From Eledone cirrhosa (lineage: Eukaryota): 64,000 nucleotides of DNA. The notes beneath the pieces are model-generated. The model had not been told where the DNA came from and did no database searches. It worked only from the letters and a program-made list of their open reading frames with translations. Shown one piece after another: positions 136-39,694 of this stretch. The translations under genes were made by a program, and so were the position numbers. The stretch is taken from the NCBI GenBank assembly GCA_964016885.1, contig OZ024740.1, positions 424,638,001-424,702,000 of the forward strand, given 5' to 3'. Each line of letters begins with the position of its first letter. The first letter of the stretch is position 1.

Positions 136-318
136 GAAAGTAGAGGAAAGTAGATGAAAGTAGAGGAAAGTAGAGGAAAGTAGAGGAAAGTAGAGAACAG
201 GAGAGGAAAGGAGAGGAAAGTTAGAGGAAAGTAGAGAACAGAAGAGAAAAGGAGAGGACAGTAGAGGAAAGTAGAGGAAAGTAGAGGAAAGTAGAGAAAA
301 GGAGAAAAAAGGAGAGGC
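136..318. repeat. 10-bp minisatellite (AAAGTAGAGG)n, degenerate
   Basis: Repeated aaagtagagg units visible directly. Confidence 0.85.
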
Positions 319-11667: not shown

Positions 11668-11948
11668 TCAGTCAATCATATCGGTGGCCTCCCCACAGCC
11701 CCGGAAGACGGCAAGGGAGACGCGCTGGAAAAGCCATTCCAACTCGCGAGGCTCACACCTGCAGTTGGCCAGCTCAGCGCCTATAGTGGTGAGTAGGGAG
11801 GTAGCCCTAAAACCGAGGATACCAGAAGTCTCCACTGCCAAGGGTACGACCGCGAACCTGTCGGAGAGTGACCGGTATTTGAAGAGTTTGGTGTCCTCAG
11901 CCCGACGTGCAGCAGAACCTGGGTTAGTCGCAGACTGCACCAGGTTGC
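11668..11948 (-). pseudogene. CRE-clade non-LTR retrotransposon restriction-like endonuclease fragment
   Basis: Translation PGSAARRAEDTKLFKYRSL..FAVVPLAVETSGILG..WLFQRVSLAVFRG fits the C-terminal RLE region of CRE-type elements. Confidence 0.75.
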
Positions 11949-27409: not shown

Positions 27410-28108
27410 TGCCATCCAGTGCAGCCTGACCTCAGACAGGCTCACGTGCCAGCTCGACCAGCACCGCCTTGCCTGTTTTCGCGCGGCCTCCAAACCCCAC
27501 AGTGGTGCCTAGCTCCATGCCTTGCCATCCTTCTTCACTGGCACGCGGCTGGATAACGATATCCTGCGCATCTGCGGATCTGCGAGCCACATAAATGTCA
27601 CTGTGGATCCACCGTGGACTCTTTCGGATTCCACCCGCTTTCTTGTCGCCACAGTGCCGGCTGCCTTCCGCGCCATGTTGCCCTCAACGAGGTCATTAAG
27701 CATGGCTTGGACCAGCTCGAGCCGGTGGCGCTGGACCAAGGTGATGGCAAAAGGCCAGACAGTATGACCATCTTCCCGTTCCGCGGTGGCAAACTCCTCG
27801 TCTGGGATGCCACTTGCAGCGACACTTTCTTCAGCTGCAACTTGGTGCAGTCTGCGGCTAACCCAGTTTCTGCTGCACGTCGGGCTGGGGAGCCAAACTC
27901 TTCAAATACCGGTCGCTCTCCGACAGGTTCGCTGTCGTACAGTTGGCAGTAGAGACTTCTGGTGTCATTTGGCCGTAGGGCTACCTCCCTATTTACCTCC
28001 ATAGGCGCTGAGCTTGCCAGCCGCAGGTGTGAGCCTCGCGAGTTGGAATGGCTCTTCCAGCGCATCTCCCTTACCATCTTCCGGGGAAACGCCTTCTCTA
28101 TTCTGTCC
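27410..28108 (+). pseudogene. CRE-clade non-LTR element 3' fragment (zinc knuckle remnant plus RLE endonuclease), frameshifted
   Basis: FGFHPLSC..RHVALNEVIK..EP..DGKRPDSMTIFPFRGGKLLVWDATCSDTF..ETSG..WLFQRISLTIFRGNA. Confidence 0.8.
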
Positions 28109-28357
28109 GTCGGTTCATTTATTGGCCGACATATAGGGGACAATACAAAAGACTGGGACAGTGGGGTTTTACAGAAAAATCGAGTAAACAATATGAATCA
28201 GAATAACAAAGTAACAATAAAATTACAACAAGAAAACATTCTACAATAGGGGGAATGACCACCCAGGGTTCGCCCTGGTACCCCACCAATCCTGAACGAC
28301 CCGACGCTTCGAGAGCACTCTGGAAGAGCACCCCCTCTCCTCCTCAAATTTACCTAC

Positions 28358-31315
28358 CTACAGCCGCATAAACAGAGTAGGCCCACTCAGACGGGCCATT
28401 CTCGGCACATTCATCCACCATTCAGCAAATGTACTGGGGGAGCACTTCTCTCTCCACCCTCACCTTCCTTTCCAAGTGAAACTTGAAAAAGTTGATGAGG
28501 GATTGCCGAAGAGAAAAGTGTCTGTCTTCAGTCCTTTCAACCTCTAATCGACCACTAATCCTCTATAGAACTCGAGAGTGGAAGTGCCACTGACCGCATT
28601 CCCGCCTGGTAGAGGGCAGTGAGTGCCTGGCAACATTCCAGATGCCAGTCACCCAGTCTCGGTCTGTCTTGACCCAGGACTGCAGCTCAGTCAAAGAAAC
28701 GAGCTGCGGAAAGGCCCGTCTGACAAACGGCGACCACACCTGTTCACCATTTAGGCAGAATATCTAGAGATGACGCAGCCTCAGCGCGTGCCTGCGTATC
28801 ATTAGCCACGGCATGCCCAGCCCTCCACGTAGAGGGTGCTGGCAGCAGATGGACCGCCTCACCAGCGGAACCTGACCCCTCCACAAGAATTTGAAGAGGA
28901 GCCGCTCCAAGATGGCGAGGCGCGAACGGGGGCAAAAGACGACGGTCAGACGGTAGTAGATGACGGACGCGATGTACGCGTTCACCACCTCCGCCCGACC
29001 TTTCAGTGATAGCTTCATCCCAGCCCATTTCTGGGTGAGACTGGCTACCCTGCCCGTCACCTCGTCCCAATTCTTATCCACCTGGAGGTCTGGCTCGAAC
29101 CAAACCCCGAGCAACTTTACCGGTCCGTCCGTCCAGCGCCTAACGACGCTGTTGGACGGCATGGCTTTGCCTCTCTAGGTGCCGAGTTGCAAGCCCACCG
29201 ACTTTTCCGGGTTAAGTTTTGCTCCCGTCAACCTTCCATATTCCTCCAATAAGTTACCGACGACCTCGATTTCAGAGGTGTCCGACACCATCACGGTGAT
29301 GTCGTCCGCATAAGCCGACACAGCCTTTCCGCGTCCCGGTTGGAGCGGGATGCCCTGCAACAGCTCCAGCTTCCGCAGTAAAGGCTCGAGAGTCAATACG
29401 TACAGAAGGGAAGAGAGAGGGCACCTTTGACACACCGATCGGGAGACCTGAAACGGTTCCGAGAGGTGGCCATTTTGACCATCGAGCAGGTGCCGCTGTG
29501 CATTGCAGCGATCCAGCTTCTGAAGACGGGGCCGAAGCCAGCCGCCTTGAGGACAGCTTCCAGGTACCGATGGTCGACCCTATCGAATGCTTTCGATCGA
29601 TCTAAATTGATCAGAGCCCCACCGAAACCAGGTTTACACCCTACCCTCTCTATGATGTATCGCATTAGATGGTGGTTGTCGTGTATGGACCTGGTTGGGA
29701 TTGCGCAAGTTTGCGCCAACCTCTTCACTAACACCCTGGTCAAAATCTTAAACTCTGTGTTGAGCAGAGTTATGGGCCTGAAATTGTCTAATGTGTCCTT
29801 CTTGTTCTCGTCTTTCCTTATCAGCGTCACTACGCCCCGGCTCACAGAACTGGGAATACTCCCGTTTTGCTGCCAGTTTCAGTAGAAGGCTTCGAGGAGA
29901 TTGGAGAACAAGTCTGGCATATTTACGTAAAGCTCGTAGGGCAGACCATCCAAACCGGGTGACTTGCGCCTCATGCAGCCGACAAGGGCATCCTGAATCT
30001 CGGCTGAAGTAATTGGCCTTTCGCAGCGCCCAGCGTCAGCCGTCGAGATTTGCAGCAAGCCATCGAGGTAGGGACTGAAGTCCGCCACCATCTCTGACCG
30101 GCCACTTCCCCCGAGCAACCGAACAAAATGTTGGCGAAAGGCCTCACACATCCGCTTGGAATCGCTCAGCTCGTGTCCGTCTCGGTCCGTCAAAGTCCGA
30201 ATCGTGGTTTTATTACCACGCTGCGCCTCTGCCACGCGGGCCCATCGAACAGCTTTGGTTCCGTCGTTTCTCAGAGCACGCGCCTTAGCTCTGACAATGC
30301 AACCTTCGAGTTTCGCATTGAAGAAATGGTCTAATGCCATTCTCGCCGCTAACCAATAGTCTCGTCTAACTTACCTACCAACTTCCCCTCCTTTCTATTT
30401 TTCTCTAACGCTACTTCTTTGCTAAACTCTATCGAAGTTACTCTAATCTCTCTTTTGAGAGCCCCCCCCCCCCCACCATCTATTGTTGACGACTCCCCCT
30501 GTCAACTTTTTCTTAACTAAATTGTTGACCTGGTCCCTGAAAGCCTTACGTGCCGGAAATGACATGTTTAGCTTCCAGTAACCAGGTACTAACCTACGCG
30601 TCTTATCTAGGTCGACCATACAGATCACAAACTTGTGATCTGAATAGGCGACCGTTTCAAAACGTGGACAGCTTACACTATTTCTGTCTATTTTCCTAAT
30701 GAATATCCTGTCTATATACGATCTAGATGACCTTATGCGGTTAGCCCAGGTCCACACAGGCGCATTAGGGAAATCTAGTCGGTACCTGTCAGACAGTTGG
30801 AACTGGCTGATCAGGTTCTTGAGGCTTTTGCACCCCCCGCTCCTATCGGATACTCCCACACAGTCCCAGCGTGCGTCTAAGATGCCGTTCCAGTCCTCTG
30901 CTAACAGTAAAAGGCGAGACGTACCCAGAAAGGCTTCCAGGCGTCTAAAGAAGTCCGGCCGTCCTGCCCCAGTAGGAGCATAGACGGCCACCAGTCTAAA
31001 GGCACCACCTTCGTTATTGTTCACGTCCAGGACCACCAACTTCCCGTCCGGGTCCCGGAAGATCGACCTTACCTCGAGATCCAGGCCTTTCCTAAACAGC
31101 ACTTCCACCCCGCCTCCCATTCCCGGCCGGCTAACAGATGCAAAGATCTGATAGTCGTTGAAAATGGGGGCTAGTGCGCGCGTGTCGGAAATCCTGGTCT
31201 CGCTGACGGCAATTACATCCATTTCTAGAGACCTGAGGTCGTTGAGCAGGTGACCCTGCTTCCAGGAATATCCCAGGCCTTGAACATTTAAACATCCTAC
31301 TCTTAATACGGCCAT
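28358..31315 (-). pseudogene. Tx1 ORF2 pseudogene (APE endonuclease plus RT), frameshifted, C-terminal zinc finger deleted
   Basis: GCLNVQGL, SETR, SYIDR, SDHK, KSPGLDG, FRPITLLN, KAFDRV and YADD across ORFs 30443-31315, 29879-30340, 29393-29845, 29175-29435 and 28764-29162; ends RMARLSGPTLFMRL*. Confidence 0.9.
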
Positions 31316-31347
31316 GTTGGCAGGTTGAAAAGAGAGAGAGGAAAGGT

Positions 31348-33280
31348 CTACTTACCTTCCGGTCTCTTGTGAAGGTCGGGTTGTTCGACCTCCATAGTTG
31401 GTGGGCTTTCTTTTGGGAACCCCTTTAAAAGTCTTCGAGTGGGTTTTACGTTCGGGGTTCCCACCTCCCGAGGAAAGCTGTCTCGTATTTCTTTGAATAT
31501 GTCCAGCGACATTCGCACCAGAACCGAATCTTCCAGCACGCGAAATGTGCTCGATTTAAACATTTCCCCCTCTTTTTGTATATTTTCACTTCGTGCTACG
31601 AGGACCATCAGTTCCTTGTTGGCCCTCCTGACGAGAACGAAGTTTTGTATGTTTTGTTGGTGTGATTTTATTTGTTTGCGTAGCTGTGGTGGTGATGGTT
31701 TTGGTGGTGTTGTTTCGGTTGTGTCTGTGTTTGTTGTGAGTGCGGTGTCTGTGGTTTCAGATGTTTGTGTGTATATTTGTTCTTGCGTCTGTTTAGGTTG
31801 TTTGCGTTTCGGGGATTATGGTGATGGTGATGGTGATGGTGGTGTTGATGTTGGTGTTATTGGAGAGATGTTTGCGTGGGTGGTGTCTGAGTTTTTTTAT
31901 TGTGGGTGATTTTGTGCTTTGTTGAGTTTTTTTTTTTCTTTTTGTGTTTCCTCTTTTGGGATTTTGGGGGATTTTGGTTTTCCCTCATCTTCACTACTGG
32001 TAGATGAGGGGTCTGTGTCTGTAAGTCTGTCTGTATGTATATTTATGGTTTTATTGGTGTGTATATTTTTGCGGGGAGGGGGAATTTGACAGCTTTCCTC
32101 ATTTCCCCCCTGGGTGGTCAATGTTGGTGGTGGTCTTCTATTGGTGTTGTTGTTGGTGGTTTTGCCGGTGCTGGTGTTGGTTGTGGTCCTCGCCCCGGCG
32201 TCGGCAGCAGTGGAGCCTTTCGACCCCTTGCCTCTTTCAGCAGTTGAGGGCAGAAGGCTCGCAAATGGGTTTTTTCCCCACAAACAAAACACTGCGGCCT
32301 TTTGCCTTTGGTCATATTGTGAATGACCGTCTCATTCTGAAGGCGGATGTGGTCCGGGATTGTCTTCACATTCTCGGGCCTGATCTGGAGAAGGATCTCC
32401 AGGTCAACCCCGGACCAATTCTCTCTGGCCGTTCTGGTCACTTCTATAGGGACGGTATCCGTCCCTTCCACAATCACACATCCCAGAAGCCACCACATGT
32501 CAAGTCCTGGTGGGATTCTGGGAATGCGGAGACGGGCCGTCATTTTCCCATGTGGGAGGGGTACATTAAGACGTTGCTGGTTTTGCAAGGAGTCATAGCG
32601 TGTTTCATAGCGAGGGCTTCTGACTTGAACAACACCGAAATGGTGCCGTACTGTCTGCCCCTCTCTATGTATTCGGTGTTTTCTCTGATGAACCTCAGCG
32701 CGACTTCGACATCTTCTTGTGGGATTAAAGCTGCCCTTTTGGTTTTTGCTGAGATGCATCTATAATGCACCGTTCTGCGCTCCACTGCCTCAATAGCTTC
32801 TACCGGGACAGTTAAGTTGGCCCAGGTTTCCTCTTGCTTGGGCCAACTTTTCTCTGTTTGAGAGGTCCATGTTGAAGCATGGCCTCTTTTTTGCTGCTGC
32901 CGCAGCGAAAGTGTTCTTCTTGTTTTCGTTGGGGGTGTTGTTGTCGTTGTCGTTGTTCTTGTTGGTGTTGTTATCACTGTCGCTGTTATCATTGTTGTCT
33001 TTGTTGTCACCGTTGTTCTCGGTGCAGTTGGTATTGTTGCTGTTGGTGTTGTCGCTATTAGTTTTCATGTTAGTGTTGTTGATATTGTTGTTGCATTTGT
33101 CATTTTTTTTTTGTTATCTGTATTTTCGTTGTCGCTGTTACTGTCATTTTTTTCAAAACTAGAGTTCTCATTGGTATCATTGGTGTCTTTGTTTACCTTG
33201 TTTGTGGTGGTGTTTGTGTTATCAATGGGTGTTAATTTCGCTGTAGCGCTCCTCTCAACTTCTACGTCGTTGTGGCACAA
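31348..33280 (-). pseudogene. Tx1 ORF1 (gag-like) pseudogene
   Basis: Asn/Thr-rich N-terminus, CCHC knuckle, Pro/Thr-rich tail; several frameshifts. Confidence 0.75.
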
Positions 33281-33895
33281 CAGCAGACATATCGGGGGGT
33301 GCTCAGCTTTTTTTTTTCTCCGTAAATTTTAAAAAATGTAATAAAAGTTCAAATATTTGGGCCAAAAGGCCCAAATATTATACTTTCCCCTTCACGGGGC
33401 AAAGTCTAAGGGCTTATATCCCTTACACAACAAGAAATATTTAACAACAAATAATTTAAACAGGCAAGTGAAGCGACTTACTGGGAGCCAGCAAAATACG
33501 TCCGATTAGACCAATAATAATAATAATAATATAATGATATAGATATATATAGATACACAATTATATAGAGAGATTATATATACATACACAATGATATAGA
33601 TATATATAATGATACAGATAGATAGATATATATACATACACAATGATATAGATATAGATATATATAATGATATAGATAGATTTCTTTATTTACCATAAAG
33701 GCATAAAAAGAAGGGACAAATACAAAGGGGGAGTTTACATATAATCGAGTAAAAAGGGTGTAACATGAAAATAATCGAAAATAACCTCAAAAGGGAGGGG
33801 ACGTGATGGGGGTTGCACACACCCCCGAAAAAGTGTGCAATCCTTTGCCCGGGGAGCACATGGAGAAGGTGTTCCCCTCTCCTTTACTTCTTTAC

Positions 33896-36800
33896 CTACA
33901 GGATGGTATACAGAGAAGGCCCATTTACACGAGCCATTCTCGCCACTATCACCCACCTTTCATAAAACTGCCTGTGGCCAAGCACCTCTCTCTCCATTCT
34001 TATCCTTCTTCCGAAGTGATATCGGAAGAAGTAGACCAGACTATGGCCAGAGAGGAAGTTGCCTGACCTCAGACCTTTCAATCGTGTCCACCAAACAACC
34101 TCTTTCAACATGGCTATTACGCACAGAAAAACCGCCTTTGCTTCCTTTGTGAAGAGGGGAGGCGGTTTGATTGTCATCACGGACTCGGCGGTCAATTTAA
34201 TCGGCGCCACCCGCGACAGCAGTTGTTCGGCGTAGCCCCACAGATCAGCCACGCCCGGACATTGCACCAATGCGTGCGCCACGGTTTCTTCGTGACGCAC
34301 GCATCTAGGGCAAATCTTTTTTGAGGGATCCCTGCCCGGGCGCCCGTGTCTGTAGAGCCTCTCTCGAACGGGTAGAGCCCCTCGGTAGCACTGCCAGGCC
34401 AGTGACTTCTGGAAGTTGTCCATTGGTCCTGGGCCGAAAGTCCTACCGAACAGGCTGGCCAGTTCGTCTTCTTCCATGTCCAGCGACTCTCCAAGGGTGT
34501 CATCGCCCCTGCTAGCCACCAGCCCTCTATAGAATGATGAGGTGGATTCTCCACCGATGGCCCGGCCCGCTTGCCAGAGAGCCCTGAGCGCCTGAGCACA
34601 CTCAGTGTGCCAGTCTCCCAGTTTTCCGGATCTTTGCTTGACCCAGGACTGTAGCTCGGTGAGTGAGACGAGTCTCGGAAAGGCTCGTTTCACGAACGGA
34701 GCCCACACCGGTTGACCAGTGAGGAATACCTGTAGGTGCCGTAGCCTTAATGCGTGCCTACGCATCATCAACCACGGCATCCCCAGCCCTCCTTTCGAAG
34801 GTTGTTGGCAGCAGATGGATCTTCTCACCATAGGAGGACGCTTCTTCCAAAGAAATTGGAAGAGCATGCGTTCCATGGTGGTGAGTGTTTCCTTAGGGCA
34901 AGGCACGACAGTCAGGCGGTAGTAAGTGACGGACGCTATGTAAATGTTCGCCACCTCCGCCCGGCCTTTTAGGGACAGCTTACACTTGGCCCATTTCTGG
35001 GTTAGTGCAAACACCTTGTTCGTAACCTCGTTCCAGTTCTTTTCCACCTGGAGGTCCGGTCCAAACCAGACCCCAAGCAACTTTACCGGGCCCTCCGTCC
35101 AGTGTCCGACGACACCGTCAGGAGGCATCGGTTTGCCTCTCCACGTTCCGAGTTGCAGCCCGATGGATTTTTCCCGGTTCAGTTTCGCTCCTGACAACCT
35201 TTCGTACTCCTCCAGTAAGGTACCGATCGCCTCGATCTCCGAGTCGGTTGATACCATTACTGTTACGTCATCGGCGTAGGCCGACACCGCTTTGCTCAAT
35301 CCTGGTTCCAGGGGGATACCCTGCAACAACTCCAACTTCCTCAGTAAAGGCTCGAGAGTCAATACGTACAGAAGGGAGGAGAGAGGGCACCCCTGTCGAA
35401 TGGATCGTGTGATTTCGAACGGCTTCGAAAGGTAGCCGTTCACCTTGATCCTAGAACAGATGTGGTTGCTATGTAGGGCAGTGATCCAGCCTCTGAAAAC
35501 AGGACCGAATCCAGCCGCCGCTAGCACCGCATCCAGGTAACCATGGTCGACCCTATCGAAGGCCTTAGACTGATCCAAGTTGATCAGGGCCCCACCGAAG
35601 CCGGGTTTGTTGCCAACCCTCTCTATGATGTATCGCATGAGGTGGAGGTTATCGTGAATGGACCTGGATGGGATAGCACATGTCTGCGCATCTCCCACCA
35701 GGCCACCCACGACAAGCGCCAACCTCTTTGCTAACACCTTGGCCAAAATCTTTAACTCTGTGTTTAGCAGGGTTATGGGCCGAAAATTATTTATACTATC
35801 CCCCTTGTTCTCGTCCTTCCTCACCAGCGTGACTACGCCCTTGGCTACAGAACAAGGAATTCTCCCGTTCTGCTGCCAATTGCAGTAGACCGCTTCGAGG
35901 AGTTCGGAGAAGAAGACCGGCATTGCTAAATAAAGTTCGTAAGGTATACCATCGAGACCTGGAGATTTGCGTCTGCTGCATTGGCTCAGCGCATCTCCGA
36001 TCTCATCAGCCGAGATTGGTCCCTCGCAGGACTCTGCCTCTTTGTTCGAGAGACGCGGCAGGCCGTCGAGGTATGGACCGAAATCCACGCCCCGGCCCGG
36101 ACCCTCGCCTCCCCCGAACAATCGGGCAAAGTGCTTTTGAAAGGCCTCGCACATCTGCTTAGGCTCCCGGATCACTCGTCCATCTTCGTCTTGCAACGAC
36201 CGGATGGTGGATCGATTTCCACTTTTAGCTTCTGTCACGCGGGCCCATCCAACGGCTTTGGCCCCCTCATTACCTAGAGCACGTATTTTACTTCGAATGA
36301 CGCAGCCTTCATGCTTTGCATCGAAAAACTGGTTCAAGGCCGTCCTCGATGCCAGCACTCTGGCCACATCTTCGCTCTTGATTGCCTCTTCTAATTTACC
36401 TGTTAATTCTTTCTCGTTTCTATTCCTATTGGCAGCTAACATCTTGCTATAACTTATTGATTCTGTTCTAATCTCTCTTTTGAGAGATGCCCACCATCGG
36501 TTGTTGACGATTGCACCCGTCAACCTCTCCTTAACTAATCTGCTAATCCGGTTTCTGTAAGTCTCTTTTGCCGGTAAAGACAAATTAAGTTTCCAGTAAC
36601 CGGGACCCTGTCTATGTGTTTTCTCGAGATTGACCACGCAGGTCACTAATTTGTGATCCGTGTAGCCAACCGTGCGCATTTCTGGACAGCTTAATATGTC
36701 CCTATCCTTACTTCTAACTAAGAATCTATCTAAGTACGATCTAGATTGACCACTGTGGTTTCTCCAAGTCCAGGTAGGCACAGTTGGAAAATCTAGTCGA

Positions 36801-37333
36801 TATCTATCGACCAAGTTAAAACGGTCGAGTAACCCCTTGAGGCTGTTACACCCCCCTCTATTAGGACATGCTCCTGCATAGTCCCAACGTGCATCTAGGA
36901 TGTCATTCCAATCCCCCGCTAGAAGCAGGGAACGCGACGTTCCCAGAAAAGTCTCCAAACGCTGGAAGAAGTCGGGCCGTTCAGCTCCGAAAGGGGAGTA
37001 GACGGCGACCAGTCTCAAGGCCGCACTTTCACTACTGCCAACGTCTAGCACCAACAAACGACCCTCCGGGTCCGAGTGCACAACCTGTACGGCAAGACCC
37101 AGGTGTTTTTGCAGTAGCACGACAACCCCACCCCCACCTCCAGGTTGACAGAGAGATGCATGCACCTCAAAGTCATCGAAGGTGGGGGCCAGCTGCCGCA
37201 TGACGCTGATTCGAGTCTCACAGATAACCATTACATTTATACTACATGACCTGAGGTCATTTAGAAGCTTTGCTTGCTTCCAAGTTGAGCCCAGGCCACG
37301 TGCATTCAAACATCCTACTCTTAACACATCCAT
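33896..37333 (-). CDS. LINE ORF2: apurinic-like endonuclease, reverse transcriptase, C-terminal CCHC finger (1145 aa, intact)
   Basis: GCLNARGL, ICETR, LAGDWN, SYLDRF, TDHK; KSPGLDG, FRPITLLN, LDQSKAFDRV, IRQGCPLS, YADD, KLLGV; CPRC..ETVAHALVQC. Confidence 0.97.
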   Translation of the reverse strand: MDVLRVGCLNARGLGSTWKQAKLLNDLRSCSINVMVICETRISVMRQLAPTFDDFEVHASLCQPGGGGGVVVLLQKHLGLAVQVVHSDPEGRLLVLDVGSSESAALRLVAVYSPFGAERPDFFQRLETFLGTSRSLLLAGDWNDILDARWDYAGACPNRGGCNSLKGLLDRFNLVDRYRLDFPTVPTWTWRNHSGQSRSYLDRFLVRSKDRDILSCPEMRTVGYTDHKLVTCVVNLEKTHRQGPGYWKLNLSLPAKETYRNRISRLVKERLTGAIVNNRWWASLKREIRTESISYSKMLAANRNRNEKELTGKLEEAIKSEDVARVLASRTALNQFFDAKHEGCVIRSKIRALGNEGAKAVGWARVTEAKSGNRSTIRSLQDEDGRVIREPKQMCEAFQKHFARLFGGGEGPGRGVDFGPYLDGLPRLSNKEAESCEGPISADEIGDALSQCSRRKSPGLDGIPYELYLAMPVFFSELLEAVYCNWQQNGRIPCSVAKGVVTLVRKDENKGDSINNFRPITLLNTELKILAKVLAKRLALVVGGLVGDAQTCAIPSRSIHDNLHLMRYIIERVGNKPGFGGALINLDQSKAFDRVDHGYLDAVLAAAGFGPVFRGWITALHSNHICSRIKVNGYLSKPFEITRSIRQGCPLSSLLYVLTLEPLLRKLELLQGIPLEPGLSKAVSAYADDVTVMVSTDSEIEAIGTLLEEYERLSGAKLNREKSIGLQLGTWRGKPMPPDGVVGHWTEGPVKLLGVWFGPDLQVEKNWNEVTNKVFALTQKWAKCKLSLKGRAEVANIYIASVTYYRLTVVPCPKETLTTMERMLFQFLWKKRPPMVRRSICCQQPSKGGLGMPWLMMRRHALRLRHLQVFLTGQPVWAPFVKRAFPRLVSLTELQSWVKQRSGKLGDWHTECAQALRALWQAGRAIGGESTSSFYRGLVASRGDDTLGESLDMEEDELASLFGRTFGPGPMDNFQKSLAWQCYRGALPVRERLYRHGRPGRDPSKKICPRCVRHEETVAHALVQCPGVADLWGYAEQLLSRVAPIKLTAESVMTIKPPPLFTKEAKAVFLCVIAMLKEVVWWTRLKGLRSGNFLSGHSLVYFFRYHFGRRIRMEREVLGHRQFYERWVIVARMARVNGPSLYTIL

Positions 37334-37366
37334 GTGGGCGGCAGAGCCAAAGGAGAGTGTAGAGAC

Positions 37367-39247
37367 CTACCTTTCCGCTTCCCGGGGTTCGGGTTGCACG
37401 ACTTCCATGGGGTCGGGGGTGTTGGGTGAAGGGGTGTCTTGTGGTGGTGTGGGGTCGTCGGTGTGTGGTGGGGTTGGGGTGTTTGGAGTTGTGTTGGGGA
37501 GGGGAAGGGGAGGGGGAAAGCTTTTTAGTAGGACGCGGTTTATGGGTTTGACAGAGGGTGGTCCTACGTCCTCCTTAAAATCCTTTTTTAGTTTTTGGTA
37601 GAGGTTCATTGGGATTTTTATTAGTTTTAAATGTGGGTGGTTTTCTGATGAAACAAAGTTTACACCTTCGGTTTGTACCGAAGGATTATTGTATATGAGT
37701 TCATTTAATTTATTATTGTTTCTGTTGATGTAAGTATAGTGTAATGTCTTTTTTTCCGATGGTGTGAGTGTTTCGAAGAGGGGAGGGGCAGGTTTGGTTT
37801 TGTTTGTTGCTGGAGGGGTGTTTTCTGTTTTGTTAGATTGTGTTGCGATTTGGGTGGGGGTTGTTTGTCCTTGTGTGTTTTGCACATGTTTTCTTTTTTT
37901 TCCTTTTAATCTGTCTGAAGGACTCCGTTTCTTCCTCCGAATTCGTTGGGTTATCTTCAGTGTTGGAGGGAAGAGGTATGTTTGCTGGTAATGTTTCCGT
38001 GTTGGTTTTCTTTGTGGGGGAGATGGATGTCACTATGTTAGACTGTGTTGTGTGTTGTGTCTGCGGTGGTTGTGTTGTTTTATTGAGTGAGAGGTTGGGT
38101 GGGCCTGTATTTTGTTTTGGGGTAATGTGTTGTGACTGTTTGTGTTGTGGTGGTGTTGTGGTGTTACTGAGGGACGGGTTGGGTGGGACTGAGTTTTGTT
38201 GTTTGTTTATCTGTTGTGGTGGTGGTGGTGGAGCTGGTGTTGGTAGCAGGGTTTTCTTTTTGTTGAGTTGGGGACAAGCGGCCTTCAGGTGCCCTCTGCC
38301 TGCACAGATATGGCAGGACGGCCTTCTCCCCTCCACGCTAATGTTTATATACCCGTGGTCCTCTAATAGGATTCTGTCGGGTATTTGGGCGATGCGTTCA
38401 GGCTTCATTTGTACTACCAGCTCTATACCTGTTCCACTGAACGCATTGCCTGTGGTTTTCCCAATGGAAATCACGTTGTCATTCACTGGATCGATGAAGC
38501 CAGCTATGAGCCAGCAGTAGTCCACATCTGGCATCATTGCATCCAGCCATATGCGTTGAGTTTTTTTCCCCATATAAGATGGATAAAAGGTGAAATTTTT
38601 CGAACGAATCGGTGACAAAGCACATTTTTTTGCCGCCGATTCGTTCTTCATGATAATTGCTAGGCTTCCATACAGTCTGTCTTTTCTTATGAAAGTTGTT
38701 TCATTCAGTACTTCTGCGAGTACTGTTTTGATATCTGCTTGAGAAGGCTGTTCAGGTTTTTTGTACTGTTGTTGATGGTCCGAAACTTGACCGTTCGGCT
38801 TTCAATGTCTTTCGTGAATTCTTGAGGCATTTTTACCAATAAAATACCATTCTCACCTTCACTTATGTATTGTTTTGCGTCCGTGATCCTTCGTACCACA
38901 TCTGAAATGTTTTCCGCTATATAAGTCAAAGATTTCTTTGTTTTCTGTGCAAAAGAAATCTTGTCGTCTGCTTTGTTTTCTGATATTATGTTATTTTCAA
39001 CTGTTATTTTTTTGTTTGTTGTGTCTTTGTTTGTGTTATTAGTATTGTCATGCAATTTTTCAAATTTTTTTTTTCCGTTGTTTTCGTCATTTAATTTTTT
39101 TTCCTCCGCAGATTCGTCCGTTTTTATTTTCATTTTTCCTTCCTTCTCTATGACGTTAGTTGGGAAGGAAGGGAGGACTAAAGCGTGCGAGCTTACAACT
39201 CTTACCGCTGTCCCCCCACCACTATTTTCGTTCGCTGCGTTTAACAT
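37367..39247 (-). pseudogene. Tx1 ORF1 (gag-like, CCHC knuckle), split by two apparent frameshifts
   Basis: ORFs 38705-39247, 37833-38651 (CHICAGRGHLKAAC) and 37367-37885. Confidence 0.8.
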
Positions 39248-39694
39248 TTCTGTTAGACGATTGAAATTTTTTACACAAAATTTTTTAAAACAGGTTTTTC
39301 ACCTCTAGGAGGGGTAAAGATGAGCTGACCCACCGCCTGACAGTTCAGACGGAGGGTCAAGCTACACAATTGTATCAAAATTAAGTTTGAACTCACAAAA
39401 TTTCCTCAATAAATTTGAACAAAACTTCTGTGCGAAGTGAATGACATCCACACTGTAGAACAGACGACAGCTAGATTCTATAATGATATAGATAGATAGA
39501 TAGATATACATACACAATGATATAGATATAGATATATATAATGATATATATAATGATATATATATTTATTAAAATATATATATATATAATCTGTTATTTT
39601 CATAAATATTTGCTCTACGGTTCTTATATATGTGATATATATTTATCCTTATCGAGCCCTCTTTGGATATATATATATACATATATACATACAC

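Follow-up and report, generated by a model that had tools for sequence, protein, structure and literature searches.

The 64,000 nucleotides (nt) of Eledone cirrhosa DNA analysed here (assembly GCA_964016885.1, contig OZ024740.1, positions 424,638,001 to 424,702,000; hereafter the window of 64 kb, to which coordinates refer) contain two L1/Tx1-type retrotransposons lacking long terminal repeats (non-LTR), E1 and E2, arranged head-to-tail on the minus strand. Both contain open reading frame 2 (ORF2), and in both this frame is bracketed by a predicted splice donor at the end of ORF1 and a predicted acceptor at the ORF2 stop codon. E2 (33682..39478) is full length and lies between the copies of a 19-bp direct repeat (39497-39479 / 33681-33663), read by eye, in low-complexity DNA. 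Its ORF1 (37367..39244) has two frameshifts in this copy and the C-terminus EPREAER, and its ORF2 (33896..37333; 1145 amino acids, aa) is intact and encodes an endonuclease (Exo_endo_phos, PF03372, residues 33-238), then a reverse transcriptase (RVT_1, PF00078, residues 523-766) and a C-terminal zinc-binding region (zf-RVT, PF13966, E 8e-6, 26.9 bits, slightly below the curated cut-off of 27.5); a poly(A) signal AATAAA is found at 33685..33690. E1 (28110..33513, ends approximate) is decayed in both ORFs. Its ORF1 (31348..33250, 5' end approximate) carries several frameshifts and the C-terminus RPEGK, its broken ORF2 (28358..31315) encodes the same endonuclease and reverse transcriptase domains in pieces with about 430 nt gone near its end (about 28545), and its AATAAA lies at 28118..28123. 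No target-site duplication was recognised for E1. A 250-bp dispersed repeat (27837-28086, with a copy 88% identical to it at 11699-11948) abuts the E1 3' end and may have removed the tail and the target-site duplication.

The assignment to the L1/Tx1 group rests on an ORF2 with endonuclease, reverse transcriptase and a cysteine-rich C-terminus, on a CCHC knuckle (CxxCxxxxHxxxxC) visible in ORF1 of both elements, and on the E2 direct repeat without LTRs; a Pfam search gave no match to the ORF1 pieces of the window and weak zf-CCHC matches to their relatives. The label Tx1, as against the L1 clade, is putative. Many Tx1 families show target-sequence preference, and the two insertions (n = 2) both adjoin microsatellite-like DNA in a window that is itself microsatellite-rich. 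Among named organisms, Octopus sinensis, O. vulgaris, O. bimaculoides and Argonauta hians supply the nearest protein relatives, which points to a probable octopod host. With two ORFs, an endonuclease-reverse transcriptase and no match to an integrase family, the elements do not belong to Ty1/Copia, which is used below as an analogy.

At the end of E1 ORF1, the minus strand reads CCG GAA G and then GTAAGTAG, which gives a predicted donor AAG/GTAAGT (31350..31358; first intron G at 31355; phase 1) two codons ahead of the ORF1 stop TAG (31350-31348). The end of E1 ORF2 reads CTG TAG and then GTAGGTAA; its stop TAG (28360-28358, set by homology since E1 ORF2 is frameshifted and shortened) supplies the predicted acceptor (28350..28381; G of the AG at 28358), followed by a restored stop TAA at 28352-28350. 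The protein would end KRPEGR-stop if the sites were joined, as against KRPEGK-stop unspliced. In E2, GAA AG/GTAGGT contains the predicted donor AAG/GTAGGT (37365..37373; first intron G at 37370; phase 2), which overlaps the ORF1 stop (37369-37367), and CTG TAG/GTAAAG contains the predicted acceptor (33892..33919) at the ORF2 stop TAG (33898-33896), with a restored stop TAA at 33894-33892; the spliced and unspliced proteins would both end EAER-stop. The predicted introns of 2998 nt (E1, 31355-28358) and 3475 nt (E2, 37370-33896) contain the spacer between the frames and the entire ORF2, and the predicted spliced RNA of E2 would consist of about 2.1 kb plus 0.21 kb with AATAAA retained. A preliminary description of this DNA had given the E1 donor and acceptor and the ends PEGR-stop (spliced) and PEGK-stop (unspliced), all of which are in the sequence, as is the matching pair in E2 (37370 and 33896) in a different phase (2 versus 1), a stop being restored in both. 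The same description had called ORF1, the spacer and the untranslated regions of the two elements barely alignable. This holds for DNA, since blastn matches ORF2 only and identity is 47% over the last 80 nt of ORF1, 56% in the spacer and 50% in the 3' untranslated region (UTR), but not for protein, as the ORF1 C-terminal domain and a motif MEV.QP just before the donor do align.

The sites were scored with a rough position matrix of generic frequencies, not trained on octopus, of which the ranks alone are meaningful. AAG/GTAAGT occurs a single time on both strands of the window, at the E1 ORF1 end. The ORF1-end donor ranks first of 281 GT dinucleotides in E1 and second of 297 in E2, and the ORF2-stop acceptor sixth of 370 AG in E1 and fourth of 367 in E2. 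When scoring was restricted to positions common to the aligned elements (an alignment made in two segments, since the E1 deletion shifts the 3' end), the donor ranked first of 150 GT and the acceptor first of 156 AG, in line with the proposal that these are splice sites; the next-best shared donor fell inside ORF2. The ORF2 DNA of E1 and E2 is 70% identical and its third codon positions 53%; unselected positions have therefore largely turned over. A donor of E2 strength beside TAG appears in 0.06-0.08% of composition-matched random contexts, and when the last 9 codons of ORF2 are recoded synonymously, the acceptor score of the element itself is reached in 0.7% (E2) and 2.7% (E1) of cases.

When GTDB genomes were scanned, one bacterial bin (G001) proved to contain related elements in tandem arrays, evidently eukaryotic contamination. 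These arrays occupy at least 16 contigs (C3-C19; L004, L006-L043) with 81 matches in total, run head-to-tail with a period of about 6.4-6.8 kb, and consist mostly of intact two-ORF Tx1-like LINEs (long interspersed nuclear elements) with microsatellite-rich flanks, in which no telomeric repeats were seen; they form an unusual self-arrayed family. A match between a G001 flank and the window was rejected as shared sequence, the match being microsatellite. The scans turned up no viral contigs with such loci and none in 48 other genomes of the family to which G001 belongs, and the 3 loci from a metagenome scan were distant (24-34% identity over the best segment) and had no ORF1 end that could be used. 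Relationships were judged from identities together with a tree built by a quick method without reference Tx1/L1 elements.

The main family in G001 is 40-41% identical to E2 in ORF2 and has a homologous ORF1. AG/GTAAGT stands right after the ORF1 stop in 65 of the 65 ORF1 ends found by pattern, exactly in 64 and with one extra A in the 65th; these ends come from close kin (ORF2 identity 91-98%) and were counted as one lineage. The site ranks first among the donors of seven of eight representative units and second in the other, and the chance of such a donor beside TAA is 0.08%. Its phase is that of E1 ORF1 (TAA G/GT AAG T versus GAA G/GT AAG T), and in G001 it lies in the non-coding spacer, which suggests that phase 1 is old and phase 2 of E2 derived, with the donor kept whether coding or not. 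Five spacer types in G001 differ after GTAAGT and not within it (one copy has the extra A before it), albeit in small numbers of close relatives. The sister family L004 is 47-49% identical to the main family of G001; its ORF1 stop and ORF2 start overlap as TAATG (L004:1985-1991), and its ORF2 stop is TAA. The main family of G001 (L017 spacer) has a second ORF1-frame stop, four codons past the real one, that overlaps the ORF2 start (TGATG), possibly a relic of stop-restart coupling.

Protein searches gave 92 ORF1 matches, mostly fragments and including a few unrelated knuckle repeats; a search with the C-terminal piece of E2 ORF1 gave 0 matches, the ORF1 alignment led to P0004 only, and the ORF2 end gave 2 matches. 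Among the 10 ORF1 relatives that reach the C-terminal domain and whose C-termini were inspected, two have a G-K type ending, P0004 (PPDQGK-stop) and P0008 from Argonauta (PPEGKS-stop), both in register with the PEGK-stop of E1 and 24-28% identical to the middle ORF1 piece of E2. As protein ends, they would fit a G/GT AAG donor. E2 has lost the G-K ending and kept the donor, and the constraint therefore looks to be at the nucleotide level. The two ORF2 relatives end L-stop and F-stop after the conserved motif NG.TL.M.L/F, which is neutral for the acceptor. P0004 (603 aa) lies on a contig of 2209 nt, about the size of the predicted spliced RNA; this was not used because short contigs are common. 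P0002 (XP_036364761.1, Octopus sinensis) is annotated as an intact gene of the ORF1 type (623 aa) whose C-terminus extends (NGR...) beyond the aligned donor position.

A search of sequencing runs listed 15, of which 11 contain part of the stretch, with no RNA run among those listed. Four sequencing runs (X4, X1, X5 and X6), of DNA or unrecorded type, were compared as contigs, which drop rare forms. In such material no donor-acceptor joint appeared among the 15 joints listed out of 1749 or among 12 of the 308 rows of a further table, and contigs cross the sites unspliced, as expected of DNA: the E1 donor in records 9 and 17, the E2 donor in record 32, and the E2 acceptor in records 11 and 25. 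Two further variants under the species label of the window, known as loose-end consensus lines of low agreement, keep TAG/GT at the ORF2 stop. That of X1 (8 contigs, agreement 0.58) has CTGTAG/GT in exact register though the preceding three codons differ, and the other is from X4 (2 contigs, agreement 0.70). In both, an early phase-1 stop follows (GEE-stop and an immediate stop), and bases +3 to +6 are not donor-like. These variants favour a putative acceptor role of the ORF2 stop in the subgroup of the window. X4 was considered as RNA on account of its small size and relatively higher depth over ORF1, and was not used as such, its type being unrecorded and contig depth unable to rank parts. 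A joint in X4 (28187-28332, 144 nt) was rejected as a splice, as its ends are GT..GT on the element strand with unknown letters between, and was read as diverged 3' UTR.

Several observations qualify or speak against a splice between the two stops. E1 and E2 share descent and are for that reason not independent. The acceptors are only moderate and take their AG from the stop codon, no clear branch point was found when one was looked for in E1 and E2, and TAG/GTAGGT at the E1 ORF2 stop is also donor-like (fifth of 281). The restored stop is a weaker argument than the preliminary description claimed and rests on one phase change: the E1 acceptor leads to a stop in phase 2 (codon 1) and in phase 1 (codon 2), and because early stops are thus reached in two of three phases, restoration counts as one informative event; after the E2 acceptor, the first stop comes at codon 1 in phase 2 and at codon 4 in phase 0, but in phase 1 not until codon 53. 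A one-base deletion at 37460, seen in one contig in each of three runs among the rows listed, would, if uncompensated, place the E2-type donor in phase 1, where its acceptor has no stop for 53 codons. Six relatives that reach the C-terminal domain (P0002, P0009, P0044, P0048, P0053 and P0077) lack a GK ending. In the main family of G001, the AG of the ORF2 stop has a low acceptor score (-0.7 to -1.1) in six of eight units and is lost in two, a second donor stands 14 nt beyond the ORF2 stop with better acceptors at about +50 and +236..277, and 0 of the 65 ORF1 ends are spliced copies. No donor is present where ORF1 of L004 ends, the best nearby ranking 109 of 393. Finally, the second-best shared donor (36399/30374) stems from GGT AAR codons inside ORF2, and G-K codons alone are therefore able to make such sites.

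The claim that relatives keep the sites survives for the donor of G001 and fails for L004 and for the ORF2 stop of G001, which is probably not the acceptor there; the ORF1-end donor is found in two of the three lineages examined, and the two-sided bracket at both stops is so far confined to the subgroup of the window. The donor is likely to be an old, selected feature, judging from its sequence conservation, and selection on a 5' splice site at the ORF1 stop, one part of what the preliminary description proposed, is well supported (the same AG/GTAAGT in the same phase at 40-41% ORF2 identity), whereas the partner site and splicing itself are what we infer. The ORF2-stop acceptor is the less certain of the two, and a role as the partner is plausible.

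From the observed sites, their ranks and their conservation, we infer that the host spliceosome would join the ORF1-stop donor to the ORF2-stop acceptor in a part of the transcripts, ORF2 being spliced out and an ORF1-only mRNA formed; we give this reading a probability of about 0.5. Production of such an mRNA by ORF2 removal, counting the use of another acceptor as well, is on sequence grounds fairly probable. The splice would remove the whole of ORF2 and yield an mRNA, predicted at 2.3 kb, that encodes ORF1 protein and nothing else, and the unspliced RNA would serve as the template for reverse transcription and as the sole source of ORF2 protein; because the unspliced RNA would be the template, the intron could be kept in genomic copies. 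The purpose may be to supply more of the RNA-packaging ORF1 protein than of reverse transcriptase and to place a brake on ORF2. Under the rule of nonsense-mediated decay, an mRNA whose junction is only a few bases away from its stop would escape decay. Such an escape, with junction and stop adjacent, would account both for the position of the donor directly at the ORF1 stop and for the stop that comes after the acceptor. In the wider form of this proposal, for which the odds are roughly level, an old L1/Tx1 branch would treat the entire ORF2 as a spliceosomal intron, the donor at the ORF1 stop having been fixed before the split of lineages now 40% identical in ORF2, with a dedicated ORF1 mRNA that sets the ORF1:ORF2 ratio and spawns half-L1-like, ORF1-only elements.

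Alternatively, the ORF1-end donor may be used with an acceptor further down the 3' UTR, and the ORF2-stop TAG/GTA may be a second donor, from which a short intron in the 3' UTR is spliced. This too would give an ORF1-only mRNA, though with other junctions. The G001 families provide the pattern for it, with the ORF1-stop donor, another donor just past the ORF2 stop and, 184-277 nt beyond, a strong acceptor; in L004, 144 nt of 3' UTR (L004:5497-5640) are enclosed by the top-ranking donor of 393 and the top-ranking acceptor of 433, and E1 has a good acceptor, TTGTAG/AAT, in its 3' UTR (28241..28264, minus strand; third of 370 AG). In E2, however, the position matching 28241 is GAG (score 1.5) and the ORF2-stop donor scores 2.8, the bases that follow TAG/GT in both loose-end variants are not those of a donor, and joining the E1 donor to 28241 adds, by eye, about 40 codons before a stop. 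Taken together, this alternative is unlikely, though the least improbable of those weighed here. Part of the 3' UTR is bracketed by strong donor and acceptor sites in both G001 families (L004:5497-5640; L017 and its kin, +14 to +264), possibly as a retained, predicted 3' UTR intron, and in a 1161-aa variant in G001 the ORF2 stop is shifted onto the 3' UTR donor. Soon after the ORF2 stop, the 3' UTRs of both E2 and E1 are also predicted to form a candidate purine/pyrimidine stem (33860-33885 and 28305-28340, minus strand).

The sites could also be by-products without a role in splicing, an inherited G-K-stop ending and a TAG followed by G mimicking donor and acceptor. Within ORF2, G-K codons do yield a strong donor common to both elements, protein-level conservation of the ORF2 C-terminus (NG.TL.M.L/F-stop) supplies pyrimidines, and L004 manages without the donor. 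Read in the ORF1 frame, moreover, the G001 spacer is stop-GK(W/S/L)D-stop, which may be a former coding end. Set against this are the survival of the donor after the loss of G-K in E2, its position outside the reading frame in G001 with invariant GTAAGT bases, and a random expectation below 0.1% per lineage, which leave this explanation improbable. The internal donor lies past the endonuclease domain (36399, CAG/GTAAAT; 30374, TAG/GTAAGT; minus strand), and its joining to the ORF2-stop acceptor would truncate ORF2.

Still somewhat less probable is that the sites are landing pads for the U1 small nuclear ribonucleoprotein through which 3' end formation or export of the RNA is adjusted, with splicing rare or absent. 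Conservation of the donor is far above that of any acceptor, the 65 ORF1 ends of G001 are all unspliced, and U1 at the donor of the plant element EVD suppresses premature termination (PMC5580714). A pyrimidine-rich spacer directly follows the donor in both E1 (31316..31347, before the ORF2 ATG at 31315; 86% C/T over the 28 nt counted) and E2 (37334-37366; 75% C/T), and together with a T-rich run after the second donor in G001 it is possibly a binding site for a splicing regulator. On the other hand, the best acceptor shared by the elements is the ORF2 stop, a stop follows it in the phase of the donor in both, and the AATAAA hexamers in ORF1 precede the donor and do not follow it. The weakest alternative, joining of the donor to an AG just past the ORF2 start with removal of 51-59 nt and an in-frame ORF1-ORF2 fusion, could draw on the pyrimidine-rich spacer and on an AG that by eye is in frame for each phase (after 59 nt in E1 and 51 nt in E2), but is very improbable given an intron so short that, by spliceosome geometry, a branch point could not be accommodated ahead of the pyrimidine run, a cluster of three AGs that makes an in-frame one likely by chance, and the G001 stop that precedes the donor and makes fusion impossible there.

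Removal of ORF2 from the ORF1 stop to the ORF2 stop thus remains the preferred reading, and it predicts junctions 37371/33895 and 31356/28357, an RNA of 2.3 kb, and ORF1-only retrocopies with a precise AG/G joint. LINEs are taught as making both proteins from one unspliced two-ORF RNA. If the reading is true, a selected splice that makes a message for ORF1 alone would offer another way to reach ORF1 excess, the host spliceosome would gain a switch over reverse transcriptase output, and half-L1 elements would have a one-step origin. The literature covered, outside which lie subscription papers, Repbase reports and the HAL1 origin paper (Bao and Jurka 2010), yielded no LINE that splices out ORF2, and a prior report is possible. 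In Octopus vulgaris, 80 L1-Tx1 families have been counted, 13 of them recently active; these are the likely home of elements of the E1/E2 type, the accessible part of the source giving counts only, without structure or splice sites, and LINE expression in neurons is debated in this animal group (PMC13282606). Introns are known from the antisense RNA of TART and have been noted for L1, Tad and Penelope, their importance being unsettled (PMC1636488).

Among L1-group elements, human L1 resembles the present case in having donors and acceptors in its mRNA, from which spliced, retrotransposable RNAs arise (SpIREs). In contrast, its splicing is described as harmful, the splices lying within the 5' UTR or between 5' UTR and ORF1 as detrimental dead ends, and none that removes ORF2 is described in the accessible part of the source (PMC5860796). 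HAL1 (half-L1) is an ORF1-only derivative of the L1 group that a retrocopy of the predicted RNA would resemble, whereas HAL1 elements form separate non-autonomous families for which no splicing origin is given in the part available (PMC5753468). In the present material, where E1 and E2 both contain ORF2 and none of the 65 G001 ends is spliced, no copy with ORF1 alone turned up. Plant Ty1/Copia introns create a stop just past the junction, and the shGAG RNAs of EVD and BARE1 share with the predicted RNA conserved splice sites, a stop after the junction and an excess of structural protein; unlike the removal of the whole of ORF2 with the normal 3' end kept, they combine a short protease-centred intron with early termination (PMC5580714). 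A close analogy is Drosophila copia, in which a Gag-only RNA is made through an intron covering all of POL (Yoshioka et al. 1990, per PMC5580714): one long intron of about 3 kb over the whole enzyme region is removed and the unspliced RNA is the genome. Copia, however, is an LTR element with one ORF that needs the splice for Gag alone, whereas the elements of the window are non-LTR, their ORF1 has its own stop, and the splice is predicted. The layout itself is of the copia type, with predicted GT-AG sites that bracket the enzyme ORF and a stop at or after the junction, and, if the preferred reading is true, the copia strategy would have evolved independently in non-LTR elements.

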